Positions 2,844 to 57,612 of a DNA stretch of 64,000 nucleotides are shown here, in pieces. Position 1 is the stretch's first letter. Each line of letters begins with the position of its first letter. The stretch is from an uncultured Candidatus Saccharibacteria bacterium. Its GTDB lineage: Bacteria > Patescibacteriota > Saccharimonadia > Saccharimonadales > JACDBH01. The stretch is taken from positions 42,733 to 106,732 of the forward strand of contig CAZXJN010000001.1 in assembly GCA_964641015.1 (NCBI GenBank), given 5' to 3'. A program made the position numbers and the translations under genes. The notes below the pieces were generated by a model, which made no database searches, was not told the DNA's origin, and worked only from the letters and a program-made list of their open reading frames with translations.

Positions 2844-5800
2844 TTAGGCAACTTCTGCTTCGTCGAGCAGCGCTTCAGCTTCAGCCGCCATCAGCTCGCG
2901 TGAGCCAGTACCCACTGGGATACGACGCCCTAAGATTACGTTTTCCTTGAGGCCGTACAGGTAGTCAATCTTGCCGCTTGTTGCCGCTGCAATAAGTACG
3001 CGGGTTGTATCCTGGAAGCTTGCGGCAGACAGGAATGAGTCTGTGCTGAGTGAAGCCTTTGTAATACCGAGCAGCAACTGATTGTACTTGATGAGCTCTT
3101 TGCCAGCCTTGGCAAGCTCCTCATTCTTCTCAATCACGGCCTGCTTGCTCACCACATCGCCGGTTACGAACTCGCTATCGCCAGCTTCCTCAATTTGAAC
3201 GCGGCCAAACATCTGGCGCACAATGATTTCTAGGTGCTTGTCTGCAATATTCTGACCCTGTGACGCAAAGATTTTTAGAATCTCGTTCATGATGTAGCGC
3301 TGTGTCGCTTCCACACCCTGCAGGCTCATAAGGTCATGCAGGTTGATGGAACCGTTGGTGAGGCGTTGGCCTGCAATCACATGCTCACCATCCTTTATCG
3401 TAAGCTGTTTGAAGTTTGGAATCTCATAGCGCACTACTGCTTGTTTAGCCGGGCTGATTGTCGCAGTCTTATTAGTAAAGTCGACTTTGCCTGCAACTGG
3501 TGCAATAAGTGGATTTGAAGCCTCTTCGCCTTCAGCAATTACATCACCAATGGCGATGTCTGAGCCGGTAGCGACTGTTGGCCTGCGGCCGTCGAGGTTG
3601 AGCTTGACTGCATCTGCTTGGTCAGAGGTAATCTGTACAATATACTTCTCTCCCTCTTCCCACACACTAGCGAGACCTGGTACATCGCTGAGATAAGCCT
3701 GGCCCTTTGGAGTGCGCACTTCAAAGATTTCTTCGACGCGTGGCAGACCCTGGGTAATATCATCAGCTGCGGCAGAGCCACCACTGTGGAAAGTACGAAG
3801 TGTCAGCTGGGTACCTGGCTCACCGATACTCTGCGCCGCGATAACACCAATCGGATGTGCATCTGCAACCAGTTCACCGGTGGCTGGATCAACACCATAG
3901 CATTTAACAGGGATGCCTCGAGCAGTTGCCACTGAGAGCACGCTCTTGATTTTAACCCCATCAATTGATTCGTCAGCTTCGATAGCCTCAGACGCTTCCT
4001 TATCAATCAACTCACCCTTTTTCACGATTTTACCGATATTTTCAGCGGCATAACGGCCAACCAAACGTGAAGCCAGTGATACGCCGATTTCATCGGCATC
4101 AGCGCGGTAAATAGCGAAGCCTGGATCCTCAACATCCTCTTCGATAGTGAAGACGTCTTGAGCAACATCCACGAGACGACGGGTGAGGTATCCTGAGTCA
4201 GCCGTCTTGAGCGCGGTGTCAATCATACCTTTGCGGGCGCCACGAGTCGCAGTAAAGTACTCGAGCGCAGTGAGCCCCTGCTTGTAGCCGGACTTGATTG
4301 GCAGCTCAATTGCTTTACCGGTCGCATCAGTAGTCACACCAAGCATGCCGACTGATTTCATCACCTGGCCTACGTTACCACGGGCACCAGAAGTAGCAGC
4401 AATTGACATAGAGCTGTCTTCTTCAACGAACTGGGCGGTTAGCTTGTCCATTACTTCGCTTTCTGCCTCGAACCAAGTATCGATAGTCAGGCGATAGCGC
4501 TCTTCGTCAGTAATGAAACCTTGGTCGTACTGGTCGCTGATCTCAGCAACTCGTTCGCCTGCTGCATCCATAACTTCTTGCATGCCGCTGATTTCTGAGA
4601 AATCATCCATACCCATCGATAGGCCCGACATCGTAGCGTATTCAAAGCCAAGATCTTTGAGTGCATCAGCAATCTGCGCTGTTTTATCTTGTCCATACAT
4701 CTGATAGACCAGCGCCATCACGCTCGATAGCTTCTTCTTGGTCATAGCTTCTTCCTGGAATGGGAAGTCGCTTGGGAAAATCTCATTAAAGAGCACGCGG
4801 CCCAATGTAGTCGTACGTGTTTCACCGCGGAAGTCCAGTCGTATGTAATCCTGAAGCTTGATGTTGCCGCCATCGAATGCCATCAGCGCTTCTGCAACAT
4901 CTGCAAAGGCGCGGGGCTCTTTGTTTGAGCTAGGGCGGTCATATGTCAGATAGTAACAGCCAAGCACGATATCTTGCTCGATATGCAGGATAGGTGAACC
5001 GTCTGCTGGCTTGAGCAGGTTTTTGTTGGCAGCCATAATCTCACGCGCCTCTGCTTGCGCAGCGTCAGAAAGCGGCAAGTGCACTGCCATCTGGTCACCG
5101 TCAAAGTCAGCATTAAAACCCTTACACACCAGTGGGTGCAACTGAATTGCTTTTCCTTCGACAAGCACTGGCTGGAAGGCCTGAATCGACAAACGGTGCA
5201 GACTTGGCGCACGGTTGAGCAGGACATATTTGCCCTTAATCACTTCATCAAGCGCGTCCCAAACCTCGGTTTCACCAGTTTCAATCATGCGCGTAGCAGA
5301 ACGGATATTATGCGCCAGGTCTTCTGCAATCAGCCGGCCAATGACAAATGGCTTGAAAAGTTCAAGCGCCATCATTTTTGGCAGGCCACACTGATCGATG
5401 GTAAGTTCTGGACCGGCAACAATTACTGAGCGGCCGGAGTAGTCAACGCGCTTACCAAGCAAGTTCTGGCGGAAACGGCCCTGCTTGCCTTTGAGCAAAT
5501 CGCTCAGGCTCTTTAGTCGCCGGCGCTGACCGGTGGCCGCAACTGCGCGACCGCTGCGAGCGTTATTGTTGTCAATAAGCGCATCGACCGCTTCTTGCAG
5601 CATGCGCTGCTCGTTGCGGCGAATAACTTCTGGCGCATTTAGATCGATCAGCTTTTTCAGACGATTATTACGGTTGATAACGCGACGATACAAATCGTTC
5701 ATATCACTGGTCGCAAATCGACCGCCTGTCAGCTGCACCATAGGACGAAGATCTGGTGGAATTACCGGCAGCACTGACAGGCACATGCTCGATGGCTTAA

Positions 5801-6663: not shown

Positions 6664-9600
6664 TTATTGCTCCTCCCCTTCGCTCGGGTCTGTTTCTGGT
6701 GTGTCGTCCTCGCCAGCTACGCTAACGGTCATGAATTCACTTTCGATGGCTTCTTCACTGACATCCAGATTTGATAGTTCATCATCCGGCACTTCAATAT
6801 CAGATACATGCTCTGCTTCGTCCTTGATATTGCTTGCCAGAATTTCTTCAGCATCAATGGTCTTGTTTTCTTTGAGATCAAGCAGGTCGACCTTCAATCC
6901 AAGCCCCTGGAGCTCTTTAACAAGCACGTTAAAGCTTTCTGGAATCTTCGGCCCGACAATTTCAGTACCCTTGATGATTGATTCGTACGCCTTGGAGCGT
7001 CCGTAAACATCATCAGACTTGATGGTCAGCATCTCCTGCAAGGTGTGTGACGCGCCGTATGCTTCGAGCGCCCAGACTTCCATTTCACCGAATCGCTGAC
7101 CGCCATTCTGCGCCTTACCGCCGAGCGGCTGCTGGGTTACCATGGTGTACGGTCCGGTTGATCGGGCATGAATCTTGTCAGTCACCATATGATTGAGTTT
7201 GATCATATACATGTAGCCTACGGTGGTAGTTTCCTTGAATGCCTCACCGGTACGGCCGTCGTACAACTGCTGCTTGCCGTTTCGCGGCAATCCTGCTTCT
7301 TCCAGCAGGTCCTGTATTTTGTCAATCGACACCCCGTCAAACGACGGGCTGGCAACTTTCATGCCAAGCGCATGGGCTGCCATGCCTAGGTGTGTTTCAA
7401 ACAGCTGGCCAATATTCATACGAGAAGGTACGCCCAGCGGGTTGAGTACGATATCTACGGGAGTCCCGTCCTCGGTAAATGGCATGTCCTCGACCGGCAG
7501 AATGCGAGCAATCACGCCCTTGTTACCGTGACGACCACCCAGCTTGTCACCTACTTGAATCTTGCGCATCTGCGCAACAAACACCTGAATCTGCTTGATG
7601 ACGCCCGCCTTGAGCTCGTGCCCGTTTTCGCGGGAGAATACTTTGACGCCCACGATTTTACCGTGTTTGCCGTTGCTCATCCGCTGTGAAGTGTCACGAA
7701 CTTCTTTGGCCTTTTCGCCAAAAATTGCACGAAGCAGACGCTCTTCGCTTGACAGCTCCTGCTCGCCCTTAGGAGTAATCTTACCAACCAGAATGTCACC
7801 AGGGTGCACTTCAGCACCAATCCGGACAATCCCTTCGTCATCGAGGTGCCGCAGTGCATCTTCTGAGACATTTGGAATGTCACGAGTAACAATCTCTGGA
7901 CCCAGCTTAGTCTCACGAACCTCAGTCATATAGTCGATGATGTTGATGCTAGTGAGCGTATCGTCCTGTACAAGCCGACGCGAGATAATGATGGCATCTT
8001 CAAAGTTGTAGCCGCCCCATGGCATAAATGCTGTCAGCAAGTCTTTGCCGAGCGCCAATTCGCCATCCTGTACAGACATACCCTCGATCAGGACATCGCC
8101 TTTCTTGACCTTGTCGCCTGAGGAGACAACGACCTTTTGGTTGATGCTGGTACCTTCGTTAGAGCGTACAAAATGCTGAGGAGTGTACGTAACCACCCCT
8201 TCTTTGTACTTCACCTTGACCTCTGCACCCGAACTAGCAACAACCTCGCCATCGGCCTCAGCTACCACCAACTGGCCTGTATTTCGGGCAGCAGTGCTTT
8301 CCATGCCCGTTCCTACGATAGGGCTCTGTGGCGTAATCAGCGGCACAGCCTGGCGCTGCTGGTTGCTGCCCATGAGCGACCTATAGACAAAGTTCTTTTC
8401 AATAAAGGGAATGAGCCCGGCGCTGGTCCCAATAACCTGACGGCGTTCTGCATCGATATAGGCAACCTCATTAGCATCAACCTCTGAGGAGTGCAGGAAG
8501 CGGCGTGCTGACACACGCTCTTCTTTAAAGTACCCATCCTCGTCAATGGCATTGTCAGAGCTTGCGATAATCGTTCGGCCTTCTTCGTAAGCATCGAGGT
8601 AGACGATCTCATCAGTCACCCGTGCTTTGACCGGCCATGTTATTTGATCTTTGACCGCGGCAAGCTTCTTCGCGTCAGCGGCGGTGACCTTAGCACCAGC
8701 TTTGACAATCACTTTACCGTCTTTGTCTTCGAGGTTTACTGCTGCAATATGGCCGACAATATCCTTAGCAGTTGCGGCATTCACTACTTTTCGATACGGA
8801 GCCTCAATGAATCCATAATCATTAATACGGGCATAGCTTGCAAGATTGAGCACGAGACCAATGTTGGCGCCCTCGGGCGTCTCAACCGGACAAATACGGC
8901 TGTAGTGCGTAGCATGCGCATCACGCACCTCAAAGCCTGCACGCTCACGGCTCAGGCCGCCCGGACCCATCGAACTGAGACGGCGCTTGTGCGCAAGCTC
9001 GCTCAAGGGGTTGATCTGGTCCATGAATTGGCTCAGCTGCGAGCTTGCGAAGAACTCACGTACCGCAGCCACGACCGGGCGAGCGTTAATAAGCTGGCCA
9101 GGGGTAACGGTTTCGATTTCACTCATTGACATACGATCCTTGGCGTTGCGCTCCATGCGCAGCAGGCCAATACGGAACTGTCGCTGTACCAGCTCGCCAA
9201 CCAGCTTGACACGGCGATTCGCCAAGCTGTCAATGTCATCGGCTGGCTCCTGGGTAATATTGAGGCGAATAATCTCGGAAATGATCGCAATGAGATCCTC
9301 AAGGCGCATTACCCGGTTTTCGGCGGTGTTCGGCACATCGAGATCAAGCCGCTTGTTGATCTTGTAGCGGCCGACGCGACTGAAGTCAAAACGCTTGTAG
9401 TTGTAGAACATGTTTTCAATCAAGCTGCGGGCGTTATCAACGGTTGCCAGATCACCCGGGCGCAGACGGCGATACACTTCGATAAGTGCTTCGTTAGAGC
9501 CTCTGCTTGGATCCTTTTCAAGCGTAGCTGCGATATAGCTGGTTTTTGCCTGATCAACATGCTTGAAGGCGTCTTTTATCTGATTTTCGGTCATGCCAAG

Positions 9601-10197
9601 CGCTTTGAGAAGAGTAGTTACTGCAATTTTGCGCTTTCGGTCGATTTTTACGTACAGAGCCCCGTTGGCTGCTGTCTCGAACTCAAGCCATGCGCCACGG
9701 CCAGGAATAACCTTAGCGCCATACGTGAATGTACCGCCGTGAATGTCACGCGTAAAGAACACGCCGGCAGAACGAATGAGCTGCGACACTACCACGCGCT
9801 CCGCACCATTGATAACAAAGGTACCGCGTTCGGTCATCCAAGGATAGTCTCCGAGGTAGATTTCCTGCTCTTTGATTTCACCAGTTACTTTGTTGGTGAG
9901 TTCAACCACAGCCTTCAGCGGCGCTTCGTAGCTAATATTGTTCTCACGAGCTTCGGCTTCGGTCGTTTTTGGGTCTTCGAAGTGATATTGCTTAAAACGC
10001 AGCGATAGCTTGGTGCCGGTGTAATCATCGATGGTGCCCACTTCTGACAGTAGTTCGCCCAGACCTTCGTCTACGAACCACTGAAACGAACGGTTCTGGT
10101 GATCGACCAAGTTTGGCAGATCAAGAATATTATCGGTTTTTGTAAAGTACACGCGCTTACCCTGCGCGCGAGAGGTTTTGACGCTTGCTTTTGCCAT
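6664..10197 (-). CDS. rpoB: DNA-directed RNA polymerase subunit beta
   Basis: 1177 aa with conserved RpoB blocks (…GFEVRDAHATHYSRICPVETPEGANIGLV…). GGGAG RBS before ATG. Confidence 0.97.
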   Translation of the reverse strand: MAKASVKTSRAQGKRVYFTKTDNILDLPNLVDHQNRSFQWFVDEGLGELLSEVGTIDDYTGTKLSLRFKQYHFEDPKTTEAEARENNISYEAPLKAVVELTNKVTGEIKEQEIYLGDYPWMTERGTFVINGAERVVVSQLIRSAGVFFTRDIHGGTFTYGAKVIPGRGAWLEFETAANGALYVKIDRKRKIAVTTLLKALGMTENQIKDAFKHVDQAKTSYIAATLEKDPSRGSNEALIEVYRRLRPGDLATVDNARSLIENMFYNYKRFDFSRVGRYKINKRLDLDVPNTAENRVMRLEDLIAIISEIIRLNITQEPADDIDSLANRRVKLVGELVQRQFRIGLLRMERNAKDRMSMSEIETVTPGQLINARPVVAAVREFFASSQLSQFMDQINPLSELAHKRRLSSMGPGGLSRERAGFEVRDAHATHYSRICPVETPEGANIGLVLNLASYARINDYGFIEAPYRKVVNAATAKDIVGHIAAVNLEDKDGKVIVKAGAKVTAADAKKLAAVKDQITWPVKARVTDEIVYLDAYEEGRTIIASSDNAIDEDGYFKEERVSARRFLHSSEVDANEVAYIDAERRQVIGTSAGLIPFIEKNFVYRSLMGSNQQRQAVPLITPQSPIVGTGMESTAARNTGQLVVAEADGEVVASSGAEVKVKYKEGVVTYTPQHFVRSNEGTSINQKVVVSSGDKVKKGDVLIEGMSVQDGELALGKDLLTAFMPWGGYNFEDAIIISRRLVQDDTLTSINIIDYMTEVRETKLGPEIVTRDIPNVSEDALRHLDDEGIVRIGAEVHPGDILVGKITPKGEQELSSEERLLRAIFGEKAKEVRDTSQRMSNGKHGKIVGVKVFSRENGHELKAGVIKQIQVFVAQMRKIQVGDKLGGRHGNKGVIARILPVEDMPFTEDGTPVDIVLNPLGVPSRMNIGQLFETHLGMAAHALGMKVASPSFDGVSIDKIQDLLEEAGLPRNGKQQLYDGRTGEAFKETTTVGYMYMIKLNHMVTDKIHARSTGPYTMVTQQPLGGKAQNGGQRFGEMEVWALEAYGASHTLQEMLTIKSDDVYGRSKAYESIIKGTEIVGPKIPESFNVLVKELQGLGLKVDLLDLKENKTIDAEEILASNIKDEAEHVSDIEVPDDELSNLDVSEEAIESEFMTVSVAGEDDTPETDPSEGEEQ

Positions 10198-10483
10198 TAA
10201 AGCACTACTCCCACTTAATTTAATCCGTTGATAAACCCTTTCTAGAACAATCTAAAAAGAGAGAAAGCATGGATGTATTGATGATAAATTAACTTTTGTA
10301 TCTGTTTTTTCGTACGATTTATTTCGGCCGAAGCTACCCTAGGCGCTGACACTTTCGTGGGCCGTTAGAGACGGCGTTATTCCACAGCAGCATACCTACA
10401 CTACTTCTTATACTATAGAGTACAGAGTTATAGGATAGGAGTCAAGAGCCTTTTGCTCGTTTAGGTGCTGAAAGCTTTTTGGC

Positions 10484-11077
10484 CTAGAGGGATTCGATTA
10501 CTTGGTCGACGAGGCCGTATTCTTTAGCCTCTTTGGCATCCATCCAGTAGTCGCGCTCCATGTCCTCGTGCACGGCTTTGACAGACTTGCCGGTATTCTT
10601 CGCGATGATTCCTTCCAGCAGCTTCTTGAGTCTTAGCGCTTCACGGAGATCGATTTCCTGGTCGGTTACCTTGCCGCGAGTGCCTGAGCTTGGCTGATGA
10701 ATCATTACCGTTGCATGCGGCAGCAGGTATCTTTTACCTTTTTCACCTGAGCTTAGCAGGAATGCCGCAGCAGACGCCTGCACCCCAATCCCATAGGTGT
10801 GCACGGGAGATTTTACAAACTTCATCGTGTCGTAGATTGCGAATGCATCATATACGCTGCCTCCCGGGCTATTGATATAAAAATGAATCGGTTTGTCCTG
10901 GGACTGGTTGTCCAAAAAGAGCATCTGAGCCACTACCAGATTGGCGGTGTGCGGATTTACATCTTCACCTAGAAAAATAATTCGATCTTTGAGCAGACGA
11001 GAATAAATATCATAGGCGCGCTCAATACGGCCTTCTTGCTCAATCACTGTTGGTATAAGTATATTGCTTGGTTTCAT
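10484..11077 (-). CDS. clpP: ATP-dependent Clp protease proteolytic subunit
   Basis: [37 protein letters not shown]...[18 protein letters not shown]...MIHQPSSG is the ClpP catalytic core. Start moved from the ORF-track extension (11143) to ATG 11077, which has GGGAG upstream. The extension would run through the CIRCE operator. Confidence 0.9.
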
Positions 11078-11124
11078 AAACGTAGTACCTGCTCCCTTTA
11101 GAGTCATATCTCTAGTGTAACATA

Positions 11125-11161
11125 GACAGTTAGCACTCTTCAAGCTCGAGTGCTAACTGTC
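11125..11161. promoter_or_regulatory. CIRCE operator (HrcA-type) upstream of clpP
   Basis: gacagTTAGCACTCttcaagctcGAGTGCTAActgtc. The core matches the CIRCE consensus TTAGCACTC-N9-GAGTGCTAA exactly and lies ~50 nt upstream of the clpP start. Confidence 0.6.
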
Positions 11162-11620
11162 TAGATTCTTTCCTGCGCTGTACAATGTGACCCCAAGCAC
11201 GCCTGCACGAACCGCCTGATTGTAATCTCTTTGCGTAACCCCCACGGCGCAACCGGCAAACAGAACCGCGCTTGCATATAATAGCCCCTTGCCGACCTTT
11301 TGCCTTCTTGAATACGTCGCGGCAGATTGGTTTGGAGCGCTGTCTAGCAGCGGGTTGCTCCAGGGGCTAATGGTGCGTGGGCCAATCGTACTTCGCACCT
11401 CTTCCAATCGGGCTTCTGTGACCTGCCAGAGATGTCCGAGCATCTCGGATTTATGATATGGTTCACCGTCTGTTGAGAATGCAATCTCGGCTATCTCTTG
11501 CTCTAGCCACGGATACTGTTCTACGAGCCACGCAGAGAACTCTTTTACGAACACCTCTTCGGTAGCATCGTTCGGATTAATATACCCACCCACGTCTTCG
11601 GGGTTAGGCAGTTCCGGCAT
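11153..11620 (-). CDS. Hypothetical protein (155 aa, C-terminal hydrophobic segment) between tig and clpP
   Basis: Non-repetitive ORF. Overlaps the tig stop by 17 nt (possible coupling). Its stop codon lies inside the CIRCE arm. No family recognised. Confidence 0.5.
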   Translation of the reverse strand: MPELPNPEDVGGYINPNDATEEVFVKEFSAWLVEQYPWLEQEIAEIAFSTDGEPYHKSEMLGHLWQVTEARLEEVRSTIGPRTISPWSNPLLDSAPNQSAATYSRRQKVGKGLLYASAVLFAGCAVGVTQRDYNQAVRAGVLGVTLYSAGKNLDS

Positions 11621-12887
11621 AGTTTCGCAACTTCTCCATGGTTTTTTCGGTACGGATTCTGGTTTCGATATCGCGCAGAGCTTCAGGCTTGTTGAGCTCA
11701 GCCTGTGCAGTCGGGTCCTGGTATTGACCCTTCATGAGCTGCAAACGGACCTCAACCTCTTCGGGTGTTACCGTTACTCCTTCGGCATCTGCAACTTCGG
11801 AGAGCAAAATACCGATTTTTACTCGCTGCTCTGCAGCCGGGCGTTTTTGCTCACGATGCTCTTCGGCTGTTACGCCTTCTTCTTCCAGGTGCTCCTCCCA
11901 CGTCTGGCCGCGGTACATCAGATTTTGCTTTTCTTCTTGCTCTATACGTTCAATCTGCTCGTCTACCAGCAGCGCAGGAATTTCTATTTTGGACTTTTCA
12001 GCCAATTTTTCGAGCAGCTCATTGTCGTACTGCGCCTGAGCTTCGCGCTCGCGCTCGAATGACAGCTGCTTTTTGATATCTTCTTTGAGTTCATCAAGCG
12101 TTTTGAATGGACCGACTGCCGCCGCAAAATCATTGTCAAGTTTTGGCTCTGTTATCTCTTGGACCTTGTGAACCTCTATGGCAAAGGTGACTTTCTTGTT
12201 CTGCAGCGCTTTAGCCGCATAATCTTTAGGGAATGTGACGGTAAAGGACTTTTTGTCTCCTGCCTTGAGCCCCACAACTTCTTCCTCAAATCCAGGAATA
12301 AACGAATTACTGCCCAAAATCAGCGGGTACTCTTTGGCATCTGCGCCTTGCACAGGGTCGCCCTTTGCATCGGTGCCTTTAAAGTCAATAATTACCTCAT
12401 CACCCATCTTGGCGGCACGTGCTGTCTCGGTACGGGTAGCAGAGCGGGTTTTTAGAGATTTGATTACCTCGTCGACATCTTTAGCCGTAATCTTGACATC
12501 TTTTTTTGCAAGCTTGGTTTTTTTGTAGTCCGCAAGTTTGATTGCACCAATTGAATCCACCTCTGCCTCGAACTCAAGCTCAGTAAACGGCACGAACTTT
12601 TTTATAGCAATCTGCGGGTTAGCTACCGGACGGATGTCTTCTTTGCGTACCGCCGAAGAGTACAGATTATTGATAGCATGCTCGATCACTTCTGATTGCA
12701 GCGCATTTTGATTAACATGCTTCTCTACCACTGCAGGCGGTACATGCCCTTCGCGGAAGCCAGGAACCTTTACCTGGGCGGACAAATGAGAAATCGCTAC
12801 TTTTTTGGCGGCGGCCAGCTCTTTGGGCTCGGCTGTAATTACTAATTTTGTTTTGGTTGGTTCTGGATTGGTACGAGTTATATGCAT
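11604..12887 (-). CDS. tig: Trigger factor
   Basis: 427 aa. N-terminal ribosome-binding domain, FKBP-like PPIase core (…GDEVIIDFKGTDAKGDPVQGA…) and C-terminal domain. Located upstream of clpP. Confidence 0.9.
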   Translation of the reverse strand: MHITRTNPEPTKTKLVITAEPKELAAAKKVAISHLSAQVKVPGFREGHVPPAVVEKHVNQNALQSEVIEHAINNLYSSAVRKEDIRPVANPQIAIKKFVPFTELEFEAEVDSIGAIKLADYKKTKLAKKDVKITAKDVDEVIKSLKTRSATRTETARAAKMGDEVIIDFKGTDAKGDPVQGADAKEYPLILGSNSFIPGFEEEVVGLKAGDKKSFTVTFPKDYAAKALQNKKVTFAIEVHKVQEITEPKLDNDFAAAVGPFKTLDELKEDIKKQLSFEREREAQAQYDNELLEKLAEKSKIEIPALLVDEQIERIEQEEKQNLMYRGQTWEEHLEEEGVTAEEHREQKRPAAEQRVKIGILLSEVADAEGVTVTPEEVEVRLQLMKGQYQDPTAQAELNKPEALRDIETRIRTEKTMEKLRNYAGTA

Positions 12888-13034: not shown

Positions 13035-14339
13035 TTATTTTCTGTGATCTTTGACGATGCTCACAATCCGTTGCAGCGAATGTGTTTCTTCGGTGCTTGC
13101 GGCGAGATTTTTGAGTTTGTACTGTTCAGCTTCGACTTCTTGCTCGCCAACGAATACCACGTACGCCACGCCTGATTTGATAGCAGCCTTCAGCTGCTTT
13201 TCGGTTTTGCGGGCAGTCAGATCAATCGCCGTATTCACGCCCATTTCACGTAATTCAGCCGCCACTTTCATAGCCGCATCTCCTACATCTCCGATCGGTA
13301 TCAGTACCACCTCGGTTGCGGGCTTGGCGTCTGGAACAAGCTTCCAGCCTTTCAAAAACTCCATCAGCACTACATCGCTGATAGCAAAGCCAATGGTCGG
13401 GATCGGCTCCACGCCAAACAAGCCTACCAGTCCGTTATAACGCCCGCCGCCGAACATCGAACGATTGTTATCCGGGTTAGTATCAAATACTTCAAACACA
13501 AAGTCAGTATAGTAATCAAGCCCACGCATCAGTGATATATCAAACCGAAGATTCGTAACACCAGCTTGCTCAATCCGCTCTATTATTTCTTTTAGCTTGC
13601 TGCAGGCAGCTGATTGCTGTAGCTCTTCTGGCAGATCAGCCAGGGTCTTAGCCTGCAGAGTGCCTAGCAGCTTTTCGTCAGCACCCTGATCGCGTAAGCT
13701 GGGCGGAATAGACGCCTCAATCAGCCCGACAAATTCTGGCCGGGGCATCTTATGCATCCGGTCTATAAGCCGGGAGACCGTTTTTTGCTCTACCTCATTG
13801 AGTCCGATCCATTCCCCGAGCACGTAATTCATAAACTCCCGGCTGTTCACACGTATCTCGTACATGTCGCTGCGCGCTGCAAATCCTTTCATAAGCGAAT
13901 CGACCATCTGAATCATTTCGACCTCAGCGGCGACTTCCTCTACCCCAAACAAATCAACATTAAGCTGGTAGAACTCCCGCCCGCGGCCTTTTTGCGGCCG
14001 CTCATAGCGCCAGCACGATGGAATCGAAAACCAGCGTATGGGCAAAGGCAGCTCCTGGCGGCGGCCAGCTACCATGCGTGCAGCACTGGGCGTGATTTCC
14101 GGACGCAGCATAATCTCACGACCGCCGCGATCAGTAAAGCTATAGGATTGCTCGTTAACTAATTCATCACCGGATTTCGCGGCAAACAGCTCGACTGGCT
14201 CAAGTATAGGCGCGTCGTATTCTTCATAGCCGTACAGATGGCATACGTTTCGCCACACTTCAAACAGGCGATTTCTGATACGCATGTCCTCAGGATAAAA
14301 ATCCCGCGCACCTTTGTAGGGTTGGGTTGATAGGTTCAT
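13035..14339 (-). CDS. hisS: Histidyl-tRNA synthetase
   Basis: 434 aa. Class II aaRS motifs (…REIMLRPEITPS…, …GGGRYNGL…) and a C-terminal anticodon-binding domain. Confidence 0.92.
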   Translation of the reverse strand: MNLSTQPYKGARDFYPEDMRIRNRLFEVWRNVCHLYGYEEYDAPILEPVELFAAKSGDELVNEQSYSFTDRGGREIMLRPEITPSAARMVAGRRQELPLPIRWFSIPSCWRYERPQKGRGREFYQLNVDLFGVEEVAAEVEMIQMVDSLMKGFAARSDMYEIRVNSREFMNYVLGEWIGLNEVEQKTVSRLIDRMHKMPRPEFVGLIEASIPPSLRDQGADEKLLGTLQAKTLADLPEELQQSAACSKLKEIIERIEQAGVTNLRFDISLMRGLDYYTDFVFEVFDTNPDNNRSMFGGGRYNGLVGLFGVEPIPTIGFAISDVVLMEFLKGWKLVPDAKPATEVVLIPIGDVGDAAMKVAAELREMGVNTAIDLTARKTEKQLKAAIKSGVAYVVFVGEQEVEAEQYKLKNLAASTEETHSLQRIVSIVKDHRK

Positions 14340-14372: not shown

Positions 14373-14402
14373 ATAAAAAACGCCAGATGAGCTCATCTGG
14401 CG
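14373..14402 (-). terminator. Rho-independent terminator (minus strand) in the hisS leader, downstream of gene 14484-15074
   Basis: Perfect 22-nt palindrome CGCCAGATGAGCTCATCTGGCG (14381-14402) followed on the minus strand by TTTTTTAT. Confidence 0.6.
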
Positions 14403-14443
14403 CTTCAGAGGTGTAATAGACCCCTCTATTCTTCTTATTGTAC

Positions 14444-25830: not shown

Positions 25831-27174
25831 CTACTTACTCAGAAAGGTATTGAGTGCAGATTTTATATCTGCTACCTCGTGTACGAACGCAGAGTTTTTG
25901 ACGCCGCTATTCTTTGGAGTAATCGCTGCTTTAAAGCCAAGCTTTTTAGCTTCAGCCACCCGCTTGTCAGCAAACGGCACCCGGCGGACCTCTCCGCTTA
26001 GCCCGACCTCCCCAAACACTACTGCATCATGTTTGAGCTGCATCCCTTTGGCGGCTGATGCAATAGCCATGCAGACCGCTAGGTCAGCCGCTGGTTCGGT
26101 GATTTTTAACCCGCCTACAATGTTGAGATAAATGTCCTTGTCGGCTAGCTGGAGCTTGGTGCGTCGTTCAAGCATTGCAATCAGCAGATTCATCCTAGTG
26201 AGATCAATACCGCTGGCAGTGCGCTTGGGATAACCATAAGACGTCGTCTGTACAAGAGCCTGCACCTCAACCAGCAATGGTCGTGCACCTTCTATAGTGG
26301 CTAGAACCACCGAACCATCGCTCACCTGCCGCTCTTCAAGCAGCGCCGCCGATGGGTTATCTACCGATACGAGACCTTCGTCTTTCATTTCAAAAATGGC
26401 AGATTCGTGGGTGCTCCCATAGCGATTCTTGACGCTGCGCAGCATTTTGAAACCACCGTAACGATCACCTTCAAGCTGCAGTACAACATCCACTACGTGC
26501 TCAAGCACTTTGGGACCGGCAATCGACCCCTCTTTTGTCACATGGCCGACCAGCAGCAGCGCAGTATGCGACGCCTTAGCGGCCTGCATGAGCATATGCG
26601 TGCTATTGGTGATCTGCGAGACCGAGCCAGTTGCAGAAGCGACTGCGCCGACACGAATGGTCTGAATTGAATCCACTACCACCAGATCAAACTCTCCTGG
26701 TGATATGGTGGCTGCAATATCATCGGTTGACGTGCTGGACGACAGAAGAAGATTCTTATGATTTGCTCCCAGCCGCTTGGCGCGCAAACCTACTTGATTC
26801 ACCGATTCTTCGCCGCTGACATACAAAACCTTGTGGCGTTTTGCAGCCTCATAGGCAAGCTGGAGCATGAGGGTGCTTTTTCCTATGCCCGGTTGGCCGG
26901 CAATCAGCGTAACGCTGCCTGGCACAAACCCGCCGCCAAGCACCATATCAGTATCAGGGGACCCGGTGGTAATCCGTGGCGCCTCCTGACGCTTAGTAAT
27001 ATCTGATACCTCTTGCACAGGAAGCTTTGTACCGCCTGGAGCCGCTAGTGCAGCCACGTCCAGCTGCTCAACAATAGTGTTCCATTCACCGCACGCGCTG
27101 CACTTGCCCATCCAAGAGCTATATGATTGACCGCAGTTTTGGCAGACATATGCCACACTTCCCTTTTTTGCCAT
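25831..27174 (-). CDS. radA: DNA repair protein RadA (Sms)
   Basis: N-terminal C4 zinc finger (CQNCGQ…CSACGEW), RecA-like Walker A (GQPGIGKST), KNRFG motif and Lon-like C-domain. Confidence 0.93.
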   Translation of the reverse strand: MAKKGSVAYVCQNCGQSYSSWMGKCSACGEWNTIVEQLDVAALAAPGGTKLPVQEVSDITKRQEAPRITTGSPDTDMVLGGGFVPGSVTLIAGQPGIGKSTLMLQLAYEAAKRHKVLYVSGEESVNQVGLRAKRLGANHKNLLLSSSTSTDDIAATISPGEFDLVVVDSIQTIRVGAVASATGSVSQITNSTHMLMQAAKASHTALLLVGHVTKEGSIAGPKVLEHVVDVVLQLEGDRYGGFKMLRSVKNRYGSTHESAIFEMKDEGLVSVDNPSAALLEERQVSDGSVVLATIEGARPLLVEVQALVQTTSYGYPKRTASGIDLTRMNLLIAMLERRTKLQLADKDIYLNIVGGLKITEPAADLAVCMAIASAAKGMQLKHDAVVFGEVGLSGEVRRVPFADKRVAEAKKLGFKAAITPKNSGVKNSAFVHEVADIKSALNTFLSK

Positions 27175-27320
27175 ATGGTTAGATTATACCGCACTTGTCA
27201 CTGGCGAAACGATGATGAGCACCTCGCTCTTACAAAAACCTACAAACTATAGTCGTGCAGGGCCCATATTAGGCCTGCTTAGCACCCGTGCTACATCTGA
27301 TAGCATAACAAAACGCACCC

Positions 27321-28292
27321 CTAGCGCTGGGTGGGCACAACCTCTCGGCTGTCTATTGCCTCAACAAGCTCAGCCTCCTCAGAGGCAATCTCGTTTCGCT
27401 GCTGGACGATTCCGTTGTACTTCACAATATCCACGCTGACACTGTCTATAAGCGCGTTAAATTCACCGACGCGATTGTTGTACACCGGCACAAGTTCATT
27501 GTACTGTTCCGTACGCCCGCTTGAACGATAGCTATTCATCTGATTGCGCATATTCTTTAGCTCGTCATTTTGAGCGCGCAGTTTCTCGGTAGCAGCGTCA
27601 ATCTGTTGCTTCAACCTGGATAACTCTTCGTCATACTGGCGAATTTTATTCCGACGGTCAGTAAAGGCCTGCTCGTATTTTTCGGCATAGCGGACAATCT
27701 CTAGCCGATTAGAAAAATACCGTCCGTAGTACTCCTCGAGTTCACGGGGCAAGTTCCGCACCTCCGAACCAAAAATTGAATGCATTTCATTTTCTACAAT
27801 AGACGGATCCTGCTTGCGGTACAGCTCGATTGTTTCAATGATTCGCGGGTCTTTCATGTTCTCGTAGGTCACCTGGAGAAGCGCGTTAATCCGACGCCGC
27901 TCGCTTGCACTCAGCCGCTCGTACGCCGCATGCAAAAACTCATGAGCTGCAGTAACCTGCTTTATACCCTCTAGCCGTTCATCCTGAACGTCAAGCAAAA
28001 AGATCCCGTTCTGCCCGGGCAAATAGCAGCCAAGGACGATAGAATGCTCGTTCTCGCGGCAATGCGTGTTAAATGTTTCCTTGTCAGCCACTATCGGGTG
28101 GTTTACATAAAACAACCGCCGTGACGAATCCACCATAGTAGTATGTTCAGTAAGCTGCACTATTTCGGAGCTCGGAGTATAGCCGCGAAGCTTTACCCAG
28201 TCCTGAATGTCTTGGGCAAAAAGCATTGCACCACCTACGAGCGTTACCATGAGCCCGAGTGATAGCCAACCTATTCTTTTACTTCGTCGCAC
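27321..28292 (-). CDS. Hypothetical membrane-anchored protein with HExxH motif and coiled-coil C-terminus
   Basis: N-terminal TM (IGWLSLGLMVTLVGGAMLFA). AAHEFLHAAYE is an HExxH motif. A long heptad-like stretch spans residues ~210-300. Confidence 0.5.
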   Translation of the reverse strand: MRRSKRIGWLSLGLMVTLVGGAMLFAQDIQDWVKLRGYTPSSEIVQLTEHTTMVDSSRRLFYVNHPIVADKETFNTHCRENEHSIVLGCYLPGQNGIFLLDVQDERLEGIKQVTAAHEFLHAAYERLSASERRRINALLQVTYENMKDPRIIETIELYRKQDPSIVENEMHSIFGSEVRNLPRELEEYYGRYFSNRLEIVRYAEKYEQAFTDRRNKIRQYDEELSRLKQQIDAATEKLRAQNDELKNMRNQMNSYRSSGRTEQYNELVPVYNNRVGEFNALIDSVSVDIVKYNGIVQQRNEIASEEAELVEAIDSREVVPTQR

Positions 28293-28368: not shown

Positions 28369-30867
28369 CTACTTGGTCTTGGCAGGCTTTTCAGATTTTA
28401 GACTGAACGCCAAGCCTTTTTTACCAGCACCTACGCTCACGACATCACCTTTTTGGTACTTCTCGTCTAGGAGTCCTTCTGCAATCGCATCCTCTATCTC
28501 GTCTTGAATCAGCCGCCGCATAGGTCGTACGCCGTTCTTGGCATCATAGCCCTTTTTGAGCATCCACTGTTTAGCAGCTGGGGATACATTGAGTCCGATA
28601 CCTTTTTTGACCAGGCGTGAACGCAGTTCATCGAGCTGCAAGTCCATAATCTTGAGCGCGTCTTTTCGTGTCAGCGCACGGAACACCACGGTTTTATCAA
28701 TACGGTTCAGGAGCTCCGGCCGCATCAGCTTCTTCAGCTCATCAAGCACCTTGTGCTTGTTCTCATCATGAAGCTCATCAAGGTCATCAATGTCTTTCCT
28801 GCCAACCGCTGAAAAACCAAAGTTTGCTTCCTTTTGAAGCTTATCGGCCCCTATGTTGCTGGTCATAATGACAATGGTGTTTGTAAAATCAATTGCTCTT
28901 CCTTTGGCATCGCTGATTCGACCGTCCTCAAGCAGCTGCAGCAGCATATTGAATACGTCAGGGTGCGCCTTCTCAATTTCATCAAACAGCACCACGCTGT
29001 ACGGCTGCCGACGAATCTTATCTGTCAGCTGACCACCGTCATCGTATCCGACGTAGCCAGCCGGGGCGCCAACCAGCCGTGATACGTTGTGGTGCTCACC
29101 GAATTCGCTCATGTCTATCTTGACTAGTGCGGATTCAGAACCAAAGAATTCTCTTGCCAGCACCCGCGCGAGCTCTGTCTTGCCGACGCCGGTCGGGCCA
29201 AGGAAAATGAATGAACCAATTGGCCGGCTCGTCTGACCTATACCAATACGATTCCTGCGCACTGCGCGTGCTAATGCAGACACTGCCTCGTCTTGCCCGA
29301 TGATATGCTTGCCTAGTGACGATTCGAGATTGCGCAAATATTTTGCTTCGGACCGAATCACCTTGCTTACAGGCACGCCTGTCATGCGAGCCACCACATC
29401 AGCAACATCCTCGCTGCTAAGCTTCAAGCGCTTGCTGTCTTTTGTCTTCTCTAGCAGCTTTTCAATTTTGGCACGAATTTGTGAGGCTTTTTGCTTGTAC
29501 TCAGCCGCCTTCTGGTATTCCTCTGCGTCCACGGCGTCATCAATGCGTACGTTGAGGAGTTTTAACTCCTTTTGCAACTTGCGCAGCTCCGGCGGCGTCT
29601 TGCCTTTATCTACACGTAAATGCGCTGCTGCTTCATCCAGCAGGTCAATTGCTTTGTCGGGCATGTAACGGTCATTGATGTAGCGCTTTGCCAAATTTAC
29701 GGTATCCTCCAGTACGTCGTCGCCAATTGCCACACCGTGAAATGTTTCATAATGCTTGCGTAATCCTTTGAGAATAGCAAGCGTCTCAGCTGCTGTCGTC
29801 TCTGGGACCTGGACCGGCTGGAAACGGCGCTCGAGCGCTGCATCCTTTTCGACATATTTTGTATATTCGCTGGTAGTTGTCGCGCCAATCATTTGAATTT
29901 TACCGCGTGCCAGTGCCGGCTTTAATATATTCCCTGCATCCATGGAACCCTCAGCCGCACCCGCTCCTACAATAAGGTGAAGCTCATCGATAAACACTAC
30001 GGTCTTTTTATCGTCCTCGAGTTCGGACATTACTTTTTTCAGGCGCTCTTCAAACTCACCGCGATACTTTGTTCCGGCAATCATTCCAGCAAGATCCAGC
30101 ATCACAATACGCTTATCGAGCAAGCTGTCAGGCACGTCCTCGCTCACAATCCGCTGCGCCAGACCTTCGACAATGGCTGTCTTACCCACGCCAGGCTCAC
30201 CGATAAGCACCGGGTTGTTCTTGGTGCGGCGGTTTAGGATGGTAATTACGCGACGGATTTGCGCCTCACGCCCTACTACCGGATCAAGCTTGCCGCTCCG
30301 CGCCTGCGCGGTGATATCAGACCCGTACTGGTCTAGTGTTGACTTGCCACGGGTACGCTTGCCGCGGCGACGAGTCGCATTATCAGTATCGCTGGCGTGT
30401 TCGTAGTGCTGACGATTAAGGAACTGCTCCAGCTCGGCTACCAGCTGGTCAGTGTTTACGCTCATGTCGCGAAGCAAGGTGGTAGCTCGTGCGTTTTTCT
30501 GACTAAGAATACTGTAGAGGATATGTTCTGTACCGCAATACTCCTGATGGAACTCCTGAGCAAGCTCATACGCCATCCGAAGGGTTAGTTTCGCGGTCTC
30601 ACTAAGCGCTTTGGTGCCCATATTAATTACAATACTGTTAGGTGTAAGATTAAGCGCAAGACGTGCGCGCTCTAAGGTAACACCAGAGCCTTCAAGCACC
30701 TTGGCGCCCATTGAGCTGTCCTGAGCCAGCACTCCTAGCAGCAGGTGCTCCGTGCCGATATATTGGCTATTAAAGCTTCGGGCAATCGCATCGGCATGTT
30801 TGAGGCTCTGCAGCGCATTATCAGTGAGGTGATTCAAAAATTCTTGAAAGTCTGGTGAATTTTGCAT
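28369..30867 (-). CDS. clpC: ATP-dependent Clp protease ATP-binding subunit ClpC (class III AAA+)
   Basis: Two Clp_N repeats and two AAA+ modules (GEPGVGKT…, GPTGVGKT…). Start moved from the TTG-initiated ORF-track start (30888) to ATG 30867. Confidence 0.9.
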
Positions 30868-30887
30868 AGTACCTACATCATACCACA

Positions 30888-30918
30888 AGTTAGCACTCGC
30901 ATGTCAAGAGTGCTAACT
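30888..30918. promoter_or_regulatory. CIRCE operator (HrcA-type) upstream of clpC
   Basis: agTTAGCACTCgcatgtcaaGAGTGCTAActgtc. Perfect match to TTAGCACTC-N9-GAGTGCTAA, 22 nt upstream of the clpC ATG. Confidence 0.6.
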
Positions 30919-31373
30919 GTCCAGAAGCGCGTACCAGCAAGAAAAAACAGGTGTCAAAAGCCCGAACATCCGAACTATAGTTATAAACCCTGGATTACCA
31001 GAGGCAACAGCTTTTATTGTAATTTTTACATTGGTTGCTGCAAAAACCTGTACAGGCTTATCGGCGCCAGCCATTATGAACCGGCTGGAATATTCTTGCC
31101 CTGCGGCTGCTCCCTCGTAGATGAGAAGAGCTATATGCCAGAGCACTGCCACCAATAGCCACCGCTATGACGGATGAAGGGTTGAACTTCTGCACGGTTT
31201 CATCTGCATGGCAATCAGATTCGTAAAAAACAGTCGAAGCACAGTCTATGCTTTCAGCCTGAAACCTGCTAATGCTCTCTGCTGCATCCAGTCGTGCGGC
31301 AAACCCTATTGCAGCAGCGGCGGCGGCGAGCCCGAAAATAACTCTTTCCGGATGGCCGCGCTCTCTCAACTCG

Positions 31374-32531
31374 CTACTCCCCGTGCTCTTCGATAGCTTC
31401 GAGCAGGCTGCTCTCAAGCTGATCTTTACGTTTGAGCTTCTGCACGGGTTTAACCGCCTCTACGGTCGTACCACCTTCAGCGGACTCAGCCGGCTTGTCT
31501 GCCACAATATCTATATCGTACCCTGTCAGCTTGCTTGCCAGACGGACGTTTTGTCCGCTCTTGCCAATCGCAATGCTCAGCTGATCTTCGTCGACAGCCA
31601 CACGAGCCTTTTTGGCCGCTTCATCGATTTCAACAGAATTTACCTTGGTAGGACTGAGCGCATTGTTGATATAGGTCTTGGCATCTTCGTCCCAGACGAC
31701 TATGTCAATCTTTTCCTGCTCGCCTACTTCGCTCATGACTGCGTTGACGCGTGTGCCGTGACCGCCGACAAACGTGCCGACAGGATCAACGCCCTGCACG
31801 GTGCTGGCTACTGCAATCTTGCTGCGCACGCCTGGTTCGCGAGCGATGCCCTGTATACTGACCGCACCGCTTTCCATTTCTGGCACCTCTGCACGAAACA
31901 GCCACTCGATAAATTCCGGGCAGCCGCGTGATACGACAAGCTGCGGGCCGCGGAATCCGCGTTCAATATCCTTGAGATACACCTTGAGGCGTTGGCCAGG
32001 ATAGTAGCGCTCACCTTGGATTTGCTCACTTCGCGGCATAATCGCCTGTGCCTTACCCAGCTCCATTCGGGTAATATTCCCCTCGACCCGAGACACAATA
32101 CCGTTCACCACTGTGCCGATTTTGTCTTCGAACTCTGCCATAACGATTTCGCGCTCGGCTTCACGCAAGCGCTGCAAAATAACCTGCTTTGCAGTTTGAG
32201 CGGCCACCCGGCCAAATGACTCAACTTTTTGATGAATCTCAACCACATCATCAAGGGCGGCGTTCTTTTTTATGGCCTGTGCTTCGCTAAGACTAATCTC
32301 AGTGTGCTCGTCTTCAACTTTTTCTACCACCACCTTTGAGATATACGCGTCAACATCACCGCTGTTTAGGTCCATGGTCACACGTACTTCCTGCTCGCGA
32401 TCACCATAATCACGACGATAAGCAGCGGCAAGCGCCTGCTCTACTACATCTTTTACGATTTCCTCGCTCAGATTCTTTTCCTCGGCGATTGCCTGGATAG
32501 CCGTTGCGAGTTGTTTAAAATCAAGTTCCAT
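31374..32531 (-). CDS. nusA: Transcription termination/antitermination factor NusA
   Basis: N-terminal domain, S1 and two KH domains (…GKSGQNVRLASKLTGYDIDI…). Start set at ATG 32531, which has an AGGAG RBS. The ORF-track start 32579 is an upstream extension. Confidence 0.92.
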   Translation of the reverse strand: MELDFKQLATAIQAIAEEKNLSEEIVKDVVEQALAAAYRRDYGDREQEVRVTMDLNSGDVDAYISKVVVEKVEDEHTEISLSEAQAIKKNAALDDVVEIHQKVESFGRVAAQTAKQVILQRLREAEREIVMAEFEDKIGTVVNGIVSRVEGNITRMELGKAQAIMPRSEQIQGERYYPGQRLKVYLKDIERGFRGPQLVVSRGCPEFIEWLFRAEVPEMESGAVSIQGIAREPGVRSKIAVASTVQGVDPVGTFVGGHGTRVNAVMSEVGEQEKIDIVVWDEDAKTYINNALSPTKVNSVEIDEAAKKARVAVDEDQLSIAIGKSGQNVRLASKLTGYDIDIVADKPAESAEGGTTVEAVKPVQKLKRKDQLESSLLEAIEEHGE

Positions 32532-32681
32532 TATATTTTCTACTCCTGAATTTATTGTTTTCAAATTTCCTTTTTTCATAAGTTACTTTAGGTCAGTACA
32601 ACCACAGTGGTATGAAAAAACCCGACCAATCTGGCCGGGCGAACTGGTGATAGTATACGGGAATCTGCTAAAAAAGTAAAC

Positions 32682-57422: not shown

Positions 57423-57612
57423 AAGGCTCGTTATTTTTTAGGTTTATTTTGACCCTATCTTTTCATTTTATCATACAATAAACATTTTGTCAAGTTTCTA
57501 TAGTATTAACCCCTGTTTCACGCTGACTTTCACAGACTGCACCCATAAGTGAAACACCCTCGAAGAGATTTAACTTTTCGAGGGTGTGTTGTGCTCAAGC
57601 CATTTCTTATTT

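Follow-up and report, generated by a model that had tools for sequence, protein, structure and literature searches.

Why would the operator of a chaperone regulon stand in front of a protease gene? The question is raised by a 64,000-nucleotide stretch (the window) of contig CAZXJN010000001.1 (positions 42,733 to 106,732 of the forward strand; GenBank assembly GCA_964641015.1) from an uncultured Candidatus Saccharibacteria bacterium, in which a perfect CIRCE (an inverted repeat that controls the expression of chaperones), the operator of the heat-shock repressor HrcA, lies 5′ of clpP. In the classical view, groESL is the sole constant target of HrcA, and Clp proteases are under sigma-32 or CtsR (PMC545781; PMC3192767). 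Transcriptional regulation in Patescibacteria, or the candidate phyla radiation (CPR), is almost unexplored, and our literature searches found nothing linking Saccharibacteria or CPR with HrcA or CIRCE; the site offers a concrete, easily testable regulon for episymbionts with reduced genomes.

Here, we report a comparative analysis of the site, from which we consider it likely that the palindrome is a functional CIRCE for HrcA, fused to a core sigma-70-type promoter of clpP and matched by a twin site at clpC. Saccharibacteria HrcA most likely governs degradation by ClpCP as well as folding by the DnaK system, as far as comparison of sequences can tell. The operator and its logic are textbook; what is new is the targets, clpP and clpC, and the completeness of the pattern in the sampled Saccharibacteria.

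CIRCE sites in the window

The core CIRCE at clpP (11130-11156) is a perfect match to TTAGCACTC-N9-GAGTGCTAA. On the plus strand, positions 11125-11161 read gacagTTAGCACTCttcaagctcGAGTGCTAActgtc, within which the core is TTAGCACTC-ttcaagctc-GAGTGCTAA, with all 18 specified bases equal to the consensus. On the gene strand, the left arm occupies 11156-11148, the spacer GAGCTTGAA 11147-11139, and the right arm 11138-11130. An earlier note on this DNA had claimed a match at every core position about 50 nucleotides (nt) upstream of clpP, and both claims hold: there are 0 mismatches at 11130-11156, and 52 nt separate the end of CIRCE from the clpP ATG. The gene itself (10484-11077, minus strand) encodes 197 amino acids (aa), and its identity was confirmed by a profile match (NCBIfam ClpP subfamily NF001368, 280 bits against a cut-off of 249). 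A second perfect CIRCE (30890-30916) lies 22 nt from the clpC ATG, and its spacer, TTGACATGC, holds the −35 element of the promoter (an arrangement termed layout A below).

These two perfect sites are the only matches to the consensus with three or fewer mismatches in the whole window (G+C content, 50%). Dinucleotide-preserving shuffles (n = 100) gave an expectation of 0.05 such matches, and none of the 100 contained two or more. The note had named a widespread repeat unrelated to stress genes as an outcome that would speak against a heat-shock operator; what was found is just two copies in 64 kb, each directly 5′ of a Clp gene. An Rfam scan of 10300-11800 returned no match. The tandem heptad of CtsR (RGTCAAA-NAN-RGTCAAA) had three two-mismatch matches in the window (17457, 41470, and 48283), none of them near clpP or clpC.

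Conservation in relatives

For clpP, 80 metagenome loci were retrieved via peptide patterns inside ClpP (71-82% identity); because retrieval used the ClpP protein alone, the sample was blind to upstream DNA. In 75 of the loci the sequence reached 120 nt or more upstream of clpP, and all 75 had a CIRCE within 250 nt of the gene: 37 of these sites matched perfectly, 26 had a single mismatch, 11 had two mismatches, and 1 had three. Of the 18 arm positions in the 71 non-redundant sites, 13 were identical in 70-71 sites, and the other five in 51-68. Ten positions to either side of the arms were variable, apart from a tendency towards AA preceding the arms and TT following them, and most spacer positions varied too. 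No compensatory exchanges between the arms were found in these 71 sites; arms kept as exact sequence without compensatory change point to recognition by a protein, not to an RNA structure.

The operator also keeps its place. The 5′ gene is tig in 65 of 82 loci, rpoB is present in 55 of 82, and most relatives have the order tig-clpP-rpoB; the distance from tig to CIRCE ranges from 6 to 2075 nt, and CIRCE stays beside clpP even where genes have been inserted.

For clpC, five homologues were picked by protein identity alone (77-87%; loci L210, L211, L214, L215, and L216). All five had a perfect CIRCE 5′ of clpC, and no other CIRCE-like site (up to three mismatches) occurred in these five 22-kb loci. 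A pattern scan contributed two more clpC loci and one clpP locus with CIRCE, again from Saccharibacteria. In the window and the early loci, all CIRCE-like sites with two or fewer mismatches stood 5′ of clpP, clpC, dnaK, or hrcA, and later loci added only such sites; in total, ~645 kb of Saccharibacteria-type DNA was scanned for CIRCE.

Conservation ends with the core. According to the earlier note, the arms extend to 14 bp and the same extension at the clpC copy suggests a single regulator. The perfect palindrome at clpP is in fact longer still (11123-11163 by inverted-repeat search), with 16-bp arms (11123-11138 and 11148-11163; TAGACAGTTAGCACTC) that are 100% complementary and have 9 nt between them, but the extension is not conserved and does not make a longer recognition site. 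At the clpC copy, GACAG is indeed present on the gene-proximal 5′ side, but the other flank reads CTTGT, not CTGTC. In all ten conspecific Logan contigs (99.6-99.8% identity over 1.7-2.5 kb), GAGTGCTAA is followed by CTATC instead of CTGTC, with the core untouched, and the GACAG flank was found in none of the five protein-retrieved clpC loci (an ACAG flank in L216 alone). Polymorphic in conspecifics and not kept in relatives, the extension cannot serve as evidence for one regulator, as the note had wished to use it.

The resemblance between the two window sites has another source. At each site the shared flank (TCTRGACAG-TTAG) closes the upstream open reading frame (ORF), as GAC AGT TAG (Asp-Ser-stop). 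At clpP this ORF would encode 155 aa (ORF155; 11153-11620, minus strand; between tig and clpP), with its stop TAG (11153-11155) inside the CIRCE arm; at clpC it is an 80-aa ORF after nusA (30913-31155, minus strand), which ends Asp-Ser-stop with its stop likewise inside the CIRCE arm. That both ORFs end in GAC AGT TAG, with the stop supplied by the CIRCE arm, explains the shared GACAG flank. Arms of 14 or 16 bp were accordingly rejected as a longer recognition site on the AA/TT flanks of relatives, the CTATC of conspecifics, and the clpC loci lacking GACAG; the 7-bp extension past the core is probably species- or strain-specific and not functional. ACAG plus CIRCE was also tried and rejected as a lineage-specific pattern: a scan of genome contigs gave at least 119 loci from many phyla, so the flank is not diagnostic. 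Five of these loci were from Saccharibacteria.

Operator fused to a predicted promoter

The relatives also tell where the promoter probably lies. In 35 of the 71 non-redundant clpP sites, the spacer has TTGAC directly after the left arm (layout A), and in 34 it has the motif at its end, as TTGACG running into the right arm (layout B); only L177 and L205 deviate, with TTGCC. A TATAAT-like hexamer (at least 4 of 6 positions) follows 16-18 nt past the −35, mostly 17, in all 69 sites of layout A or B. With a −35 in the spacer and a −10 some 17 nt on, operator and predicted core promoter form one fused unit, and the CIRCE sites would mark a core promoter consensus for the lineage, TTGAC-17-TAnnnT.

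Read from this conservation, the hexamers at the two window sites are predicted promoters. The clpP promoter would be a slightly degenerate layout B, TTGAAG-18-TACACT, in which the −35-like TTGAAG (11138-11143, minus strand) straddles the spacer and the right arm and the predicted −10-like TACACT (11114-11119, minus strand) lies 18 nt past it; TACACT is also the predicted −10 of CIRCE-embedded dnaK promoters in L212 and L217. At clpC, the −35 TTGACA (30902-30907, minus strand) lies inside the CIRCE spacer and is followed 19 nt on by a predicted extended −10, TGGTATGAT (30877-30885, minus strand; hexamer 30882-30877). The clpC −35 TTGAC is in the same register in L210, L211, L214, L216, L064, and L105, and two of these, L210 and L211, which are close relatives, have the same ATGGTATnAT motif at equal spacing.

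The two −35 registers within the 9-nt spacer are nearly equally common (35 versus 34 of 71), and the −10 shifts accordingly; given these alternatives, the fusion of operator and promoter seems to have been made anew at least once in the evolution of the lineage. In 38 of the 71 non-redundant relatives, the clpP ATG lies 4-9 nt past the predicted −10, a spacing that implies clpP mRNAs without a leader. An alternative in-frame ATG in the window (11105-11107), 6 nt past the −10, is of this leaderless type, and a start there would lengthen ClpP by 10 residues; the ATG that was called (11077) has a GGGAG/AGG Shine-Dalgarno sequence. The clpC ATG of the window is 9 nt past the predicted −10 and 22 nt from CIRCE, compared with 63-152 nt from CIRCE in the five relatives, and the clpC leader seems to have been deleted in the window species, leaving a nearly leaderless clpC.

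HrcA and the proposed regulon

An HrcA of the lineage was found in locus L038, where a 237-aa protein (2994-3707, minus strand) encoded 5′ of grpE and dnaK passes both the Pfam HrcA model (59.6 bits against 22.2) and HrcA_DNA-bdg, and its winged helix-turn-helix (wHTH) aligns to Thermotoga maritima HrcA (1STZ; E = 7e-18). A database search from this protein scored 8000 proteins, all with E ≤ 1e-10. The best 120 of these 8000 (P0121-P0240) were 82-99% identical and 234-255 aa long, most of them 235-237 aa; among them, many bear the name heat-inducible repressor, and for several the label is Saccharibacteria or Patescibacteria. A promoter-embedded CIRCE in layout A stands 5′ of both hrcA and dnaK in L038, L212 (a 1.1-Mb contig), and L217, of which L212 and L217 are HrcA loci retrieved by protein; CIRCE is also found 5′ of dnaK in L018.

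The central proposal of the earlier note, an HrcA-type operator at clpP, is thus strongly supported by the CIRCE in 75 of 75 ClpP-retrieved loci, its overlap with the predicted core promoter, and the conservation of HrcA in the lineage. One regulator for both clpP and clpC is likewise supported, although by other evidence than the note had offered: the clpC CIRCE in five of five relatives and the same layout 5′ of hrcA and dnaK. Where the note went too far was in placing the operator at clpP "rather than" at a chaperone operon and in calling the regulon rewired. CIRCE has been retained at the chaperone genes dnaK and hrcA-grpE of the lineage, and the regulon has therefore been extended to proteolysis, not redirected.

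The lineage HrcA covers only positions 107-212 of the 215 in the Pfam HrcA model, i.e., the second half, and against 1STZ it aligns in the wHTH and, weakly, at ~235-278. The region of the inserted dimerising domain appears to be missing from Saccharibacteria HrcA.

From operator and promoter together, we infer HrcA binding, repression, stress induction, and GroEL feedback, as follows. A dimer of HrcA on the two 9-bp arms would cover the −35 (spacer and right arm) and the spacer between −35 and −10, and with these covered, RNA polymerase binding would be blocked in the absence of stress. As unfolded proteins build up under heat or other proteotoxic stress, HrcA activity would be lost, and joint derepression of clpP, clpC, dnaK, and hrcA-grpE would follow. 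In the Bacillus/Chlamydia model, GroEL keeps HrcA active, and stress titrates GroEL away.

Several points weigh against this account. The GroEL-titration step, if carried over to Saccharibacteria, would be pure analogy; groESL was not met in any fetched Saccharibacteria locus, although no search aimed at groESL was made. None of hrcA, groES/EL, or dnaK is encoded within the 64-kb window. The presence of HrcA is established in relatives only, not in this genome, and hrcA and the CIRCE-clp loci are not linked to one and the same assembly. At ~235 aa, the lineage HrcA is ~100 aa shorter than the canonical protein (~340 aa), and its biochemistry may therefore differ from the canonical. Finally, a generic promoter scan called no promoter at either window site, the promoters being read from the alignment of relatives, and the clpP hexamers of the window are weak (TTGAAG-18-TACACT matches 8 of 12 positions, below the scan threshold).

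A broader proposal goes further than the two window sites. A minimal ~235-aa HrcA, without the dimerising-insert region, would be the single master regulator of protein quality control (the DnaK system, ClpC-ClpP, and HrcA itself) across Saccharibacteria and possibly more Patescibacteria/CPR, acting via a promoter-fused operator with two interchangeable −35 registers and wholly replacing control of proteolysis of the CtsR, ClgR, or sigma-32 type. We lean towards this proposal, though only slightly. If true, it would be one of the earliest lineage-wide regulons of transcription to be defined in CPR bacteria. Folding by DnaK and degradation by ClpCP would be coupled through a single repressor, in parallel to the independent solution of the Mollicutes (Lon and ClpB), and this suggests a general rule: where genome reduction removes regulators, control of the proteostasis network falls to HrcA. 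As an invariant design of operator within promoter, the sites would also be ready stress-inducible promoters for the emerging genetic systems of Saccharibacteria.

Alternative explanations

The only serious rival to an HrcA operator is that the inverted repeat acts as RNA, forming a hairpin that terminates or stabilises the 3′ end of the tig/ORF155 transcript (a terminator or processing site). The position of the site invites this, since it begins inside the stop codon of ORF155 and lies 6-50 nt past tig in many relatives, and a read-through RNA would form a 16-bp stem (−27.8 kcal/mol; z = −6). Of 71 relatives, 29 have T at 5 or more of the 8 nt past the right arm, which is terminator-like, but in the window there is no U-tract (CUGUCUAUGUUACAC), and a terminator scan finds nothing at the site or at the clpC copy. 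A hairpin also fits poorly with arms conserved as exact sequence in which no compensatory pairs appear, with a site that moves with clpP where genes separate it from tig, and with an identical motif 5′ of clpC, dnaK, and hrcA behind unrelated genes; shuffled sequences fold about as well as the clpC copy (z = −1.2), and Rfam has no match. We judge the RNA explanation improbable, although an added, secondary role as a tig terminator in some genomes is plausible.

It is less probable still that the site belongs to a regulator other than HrcA, a lineage-specific repressor in the role of CtsR, and resembles CIRCE by convergence. No HrcA is encoded in the window, and Clp genes are classically controlled by CtsR (Firmicutes), ClgR (Actinobacteria), or sigma-32 (Proteobacteria), but convergence would have had to reach all 18 of 18 specified bases of the CIRCE consensus, the same motif stands 5′ of dnaK and of hrcA itself in relatives (classical autoregulation), the lineage HrcA is highly conserved with its wHTH intact, and no CtsR heptad lies near the clp genes. 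As for the idea that the site has no function and is a palindrome arisen by chance, one copy of a dispersed repeat, or a relic in decay, the weak promoter hexamers at the clpP site of the window are all that speaks for it. Against an expectation of 0.05 matches there are two copies in 64 kb, both directly 5′ of Clp genes; across 10 conspecific contigs only the flank is polymorphic, the core staying invariant; and near-invariant arms in 75 of 75 and 5 of 5 relatives effectively refute this explanation, which we hold to be scarcely credible. An HrcA operator accounts for the site better than any of these.

Genes around the sites

On the minus strand, the order around the first site is hisS, tig, ORF155, CIRCE, clpP, and rpoB. 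The 5′ neighbour tig (11604-12887, minus strand) encodes trigger factor (TIGR00115, 361 bits) and is itself preceded on its 5′ side by hisS (13035-14339, minus strand). ORF155 has no Pfam or NCBIfam match and is absent from all 80 relatives' loci; it was found in conspecific contigs and is species-specific. The 3′ neighbour of clpP is rpoB (region 6664-11077), not clpX, and no clpX was seen in the window. An identical 197-aa ClpP product is encoded on 15 Logan contigs, and the exact ClpP was found only on short Logan metagenome contigs. Other short inverted repeats in the window include one at 57554-57587 (14-nt arms, 6-nt loop) and, in the interval from hisS to the next ORF, a near-perfect palindrome of 17 nt (14378-14405).

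The gene behind the second site (28369-30867, minus strand) encodes an 832-aa AAA+ unfoldase with Clp_N, two AAA modules, and ClpB_D2-small (Pfam). Its best NCBIfam matches are ClpB and ClpA, both under the equivalog cut-offs, and its close homologues carry the name ClpC (Joint Genome Institute). The middle domain is short, and an FGF tripeptide (NFGFS, around residue 683) occurs after sensor-1, after TSNIGA, a position that we take to be the site of the ClpP-docking loop (hydrophobic-Gly-Phe) in ClpC, ClpA, and ClpX. This 832-aa Clp ATPase is therefore probably of the ClpC type and a docking partner of ClpP, the docking being argued from what is known of the family. Metagenome-assembled genomes (MAGs) named Candidatus Saccharibacteria or Saccharimonadales are the source of its closest homologues (77-90% identity) and of the syntenic loci.

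The 5′ neighbour of the second CIRCE is nusA (31374-32579). On the 3′ side of clpC lie a gene for a 323-aa conserved coiled-coil protein (27321-28292, minus strand) and then radA (25831-27174, minus strand); both (25831-28292) are probably co-transcribed with clpC as members of one operon. The order clpC, a coiled-coil ORF of 322-324 aa (in no Pfam family), and radA is conserved in L064, L105, L210, L211, L214, L215, and L216. A role as an adaptor of ClpC is conceivable for the coiled-coil protein. Linkage of clpC and radA recalls the Firmicutes operon ctsR-mcsA-mcsB-clpC-radA, here without ctsR, mcsA, and mcsB.

Comparison with known systems

How unusual the Saccharibacteria targets are was gauged in a cross-phylum sample of 114 perfect CIRCE sites, taken from among the matches listed for the ACAG-extended pattern, with targets assigned by a small tblastn panel. 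Within these listed matches, the targets were hrcA at 38 sites, groES/EL at 46, a ClpB-like ATPase at 3, and clpP at none. A further 21 of the 114 listed sites (from loci L011-L129) had no hrcA, groES/EL, dnaK, or clp gene within 400 nt, and the other 6 lay at locus ends. The perfect CIRCE sites 5′ of a Clp ATPase belong to three Oscillospiraceae MAGs (Anaerotruncus, Angelakisella, and an uncultured member; L013 at ~714, L058 at ~4628, and L072 at ~5258); L058 and L072 hold the full ATPase, which has ~45% identity to the window ClpC and a longer middle domain and is thus ClpB-like.

HrcA control outside the chaperone operons has published precedents. In Mycoplasma pneumoniae, lon is under the tig promoter and a CIRCE between tig and lon (PMC7737663). 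The HrcA-controlled promoters of Spiroplasma and M. gallisepticum are those of dnaK, clpB, and lon (PMC5138195), and clpL of Lactobacillus gasseri is HrcA regulated, as cited in PMC3192767. For Saccharibacteria themselves, the TM7x transcriptome has genes annotated clpB and clpP increasing together, which is weakly consistent with co-regulation.

Set beside the canonical HrcA/CIRCE system (groESL and hrcA-grpE-dnaK of Bacillus subtilis; Chlamydia, Caulobacter, and delta-proteobacteria), the operator of Saccharibacteria is the same, TTAGCACTC-N9-GAGTGCTAA. It lies at or near a predicted vegetative promoter, and in relatives it is accompanied by an autoregulatory hrcA site and a dnaK site. The differences are the targets clpP and clpC, a predicted −35 placed inside the spacer, and an HrcA of ~235 instead of ~340 aa.

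The regulon of the Mollicutes offers the closest parallel in circumstance: a reduced genome, few regulators, and CIRCE both on a gene for an ATP-dependent protease and on one for a Clp ATPase. M. pneumoniae (tig-CIRCE-lon) and the window agree even in the order of trigger factor, CIRCE, and protease gene. The protease here, however, is ClpP and not Lon, and the ATPase is a ClpP-docking ClpC and not the disaggregase ClpB; the phylum is unrelated, and the Saccharibacteria system is known from sequence alone.

In its targets, the system resembles the CtsR regulon of Firmicutes (clpP, clpE, and ctsR-mcsA-mcsB-clpC-radA), which likewise places clpP and clpC-radA under one stress repressor, but does so through a heptad direct repeat in place of the CIRCE palindrome, and with ctsR, mcsA, and mcsB, not nusA, 5′ of clpC. 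In L. gasseri, too, HrcA/CIRCE reaches beyond the classical chaperone operons to the gene of a Clp-family ATPase, clpL. That case concerns a single species, its ClpL does not dock ClpP, and clpP there is controlled by CtsR, whereas in Saccharibacteria the arrangement is lineage-wide.

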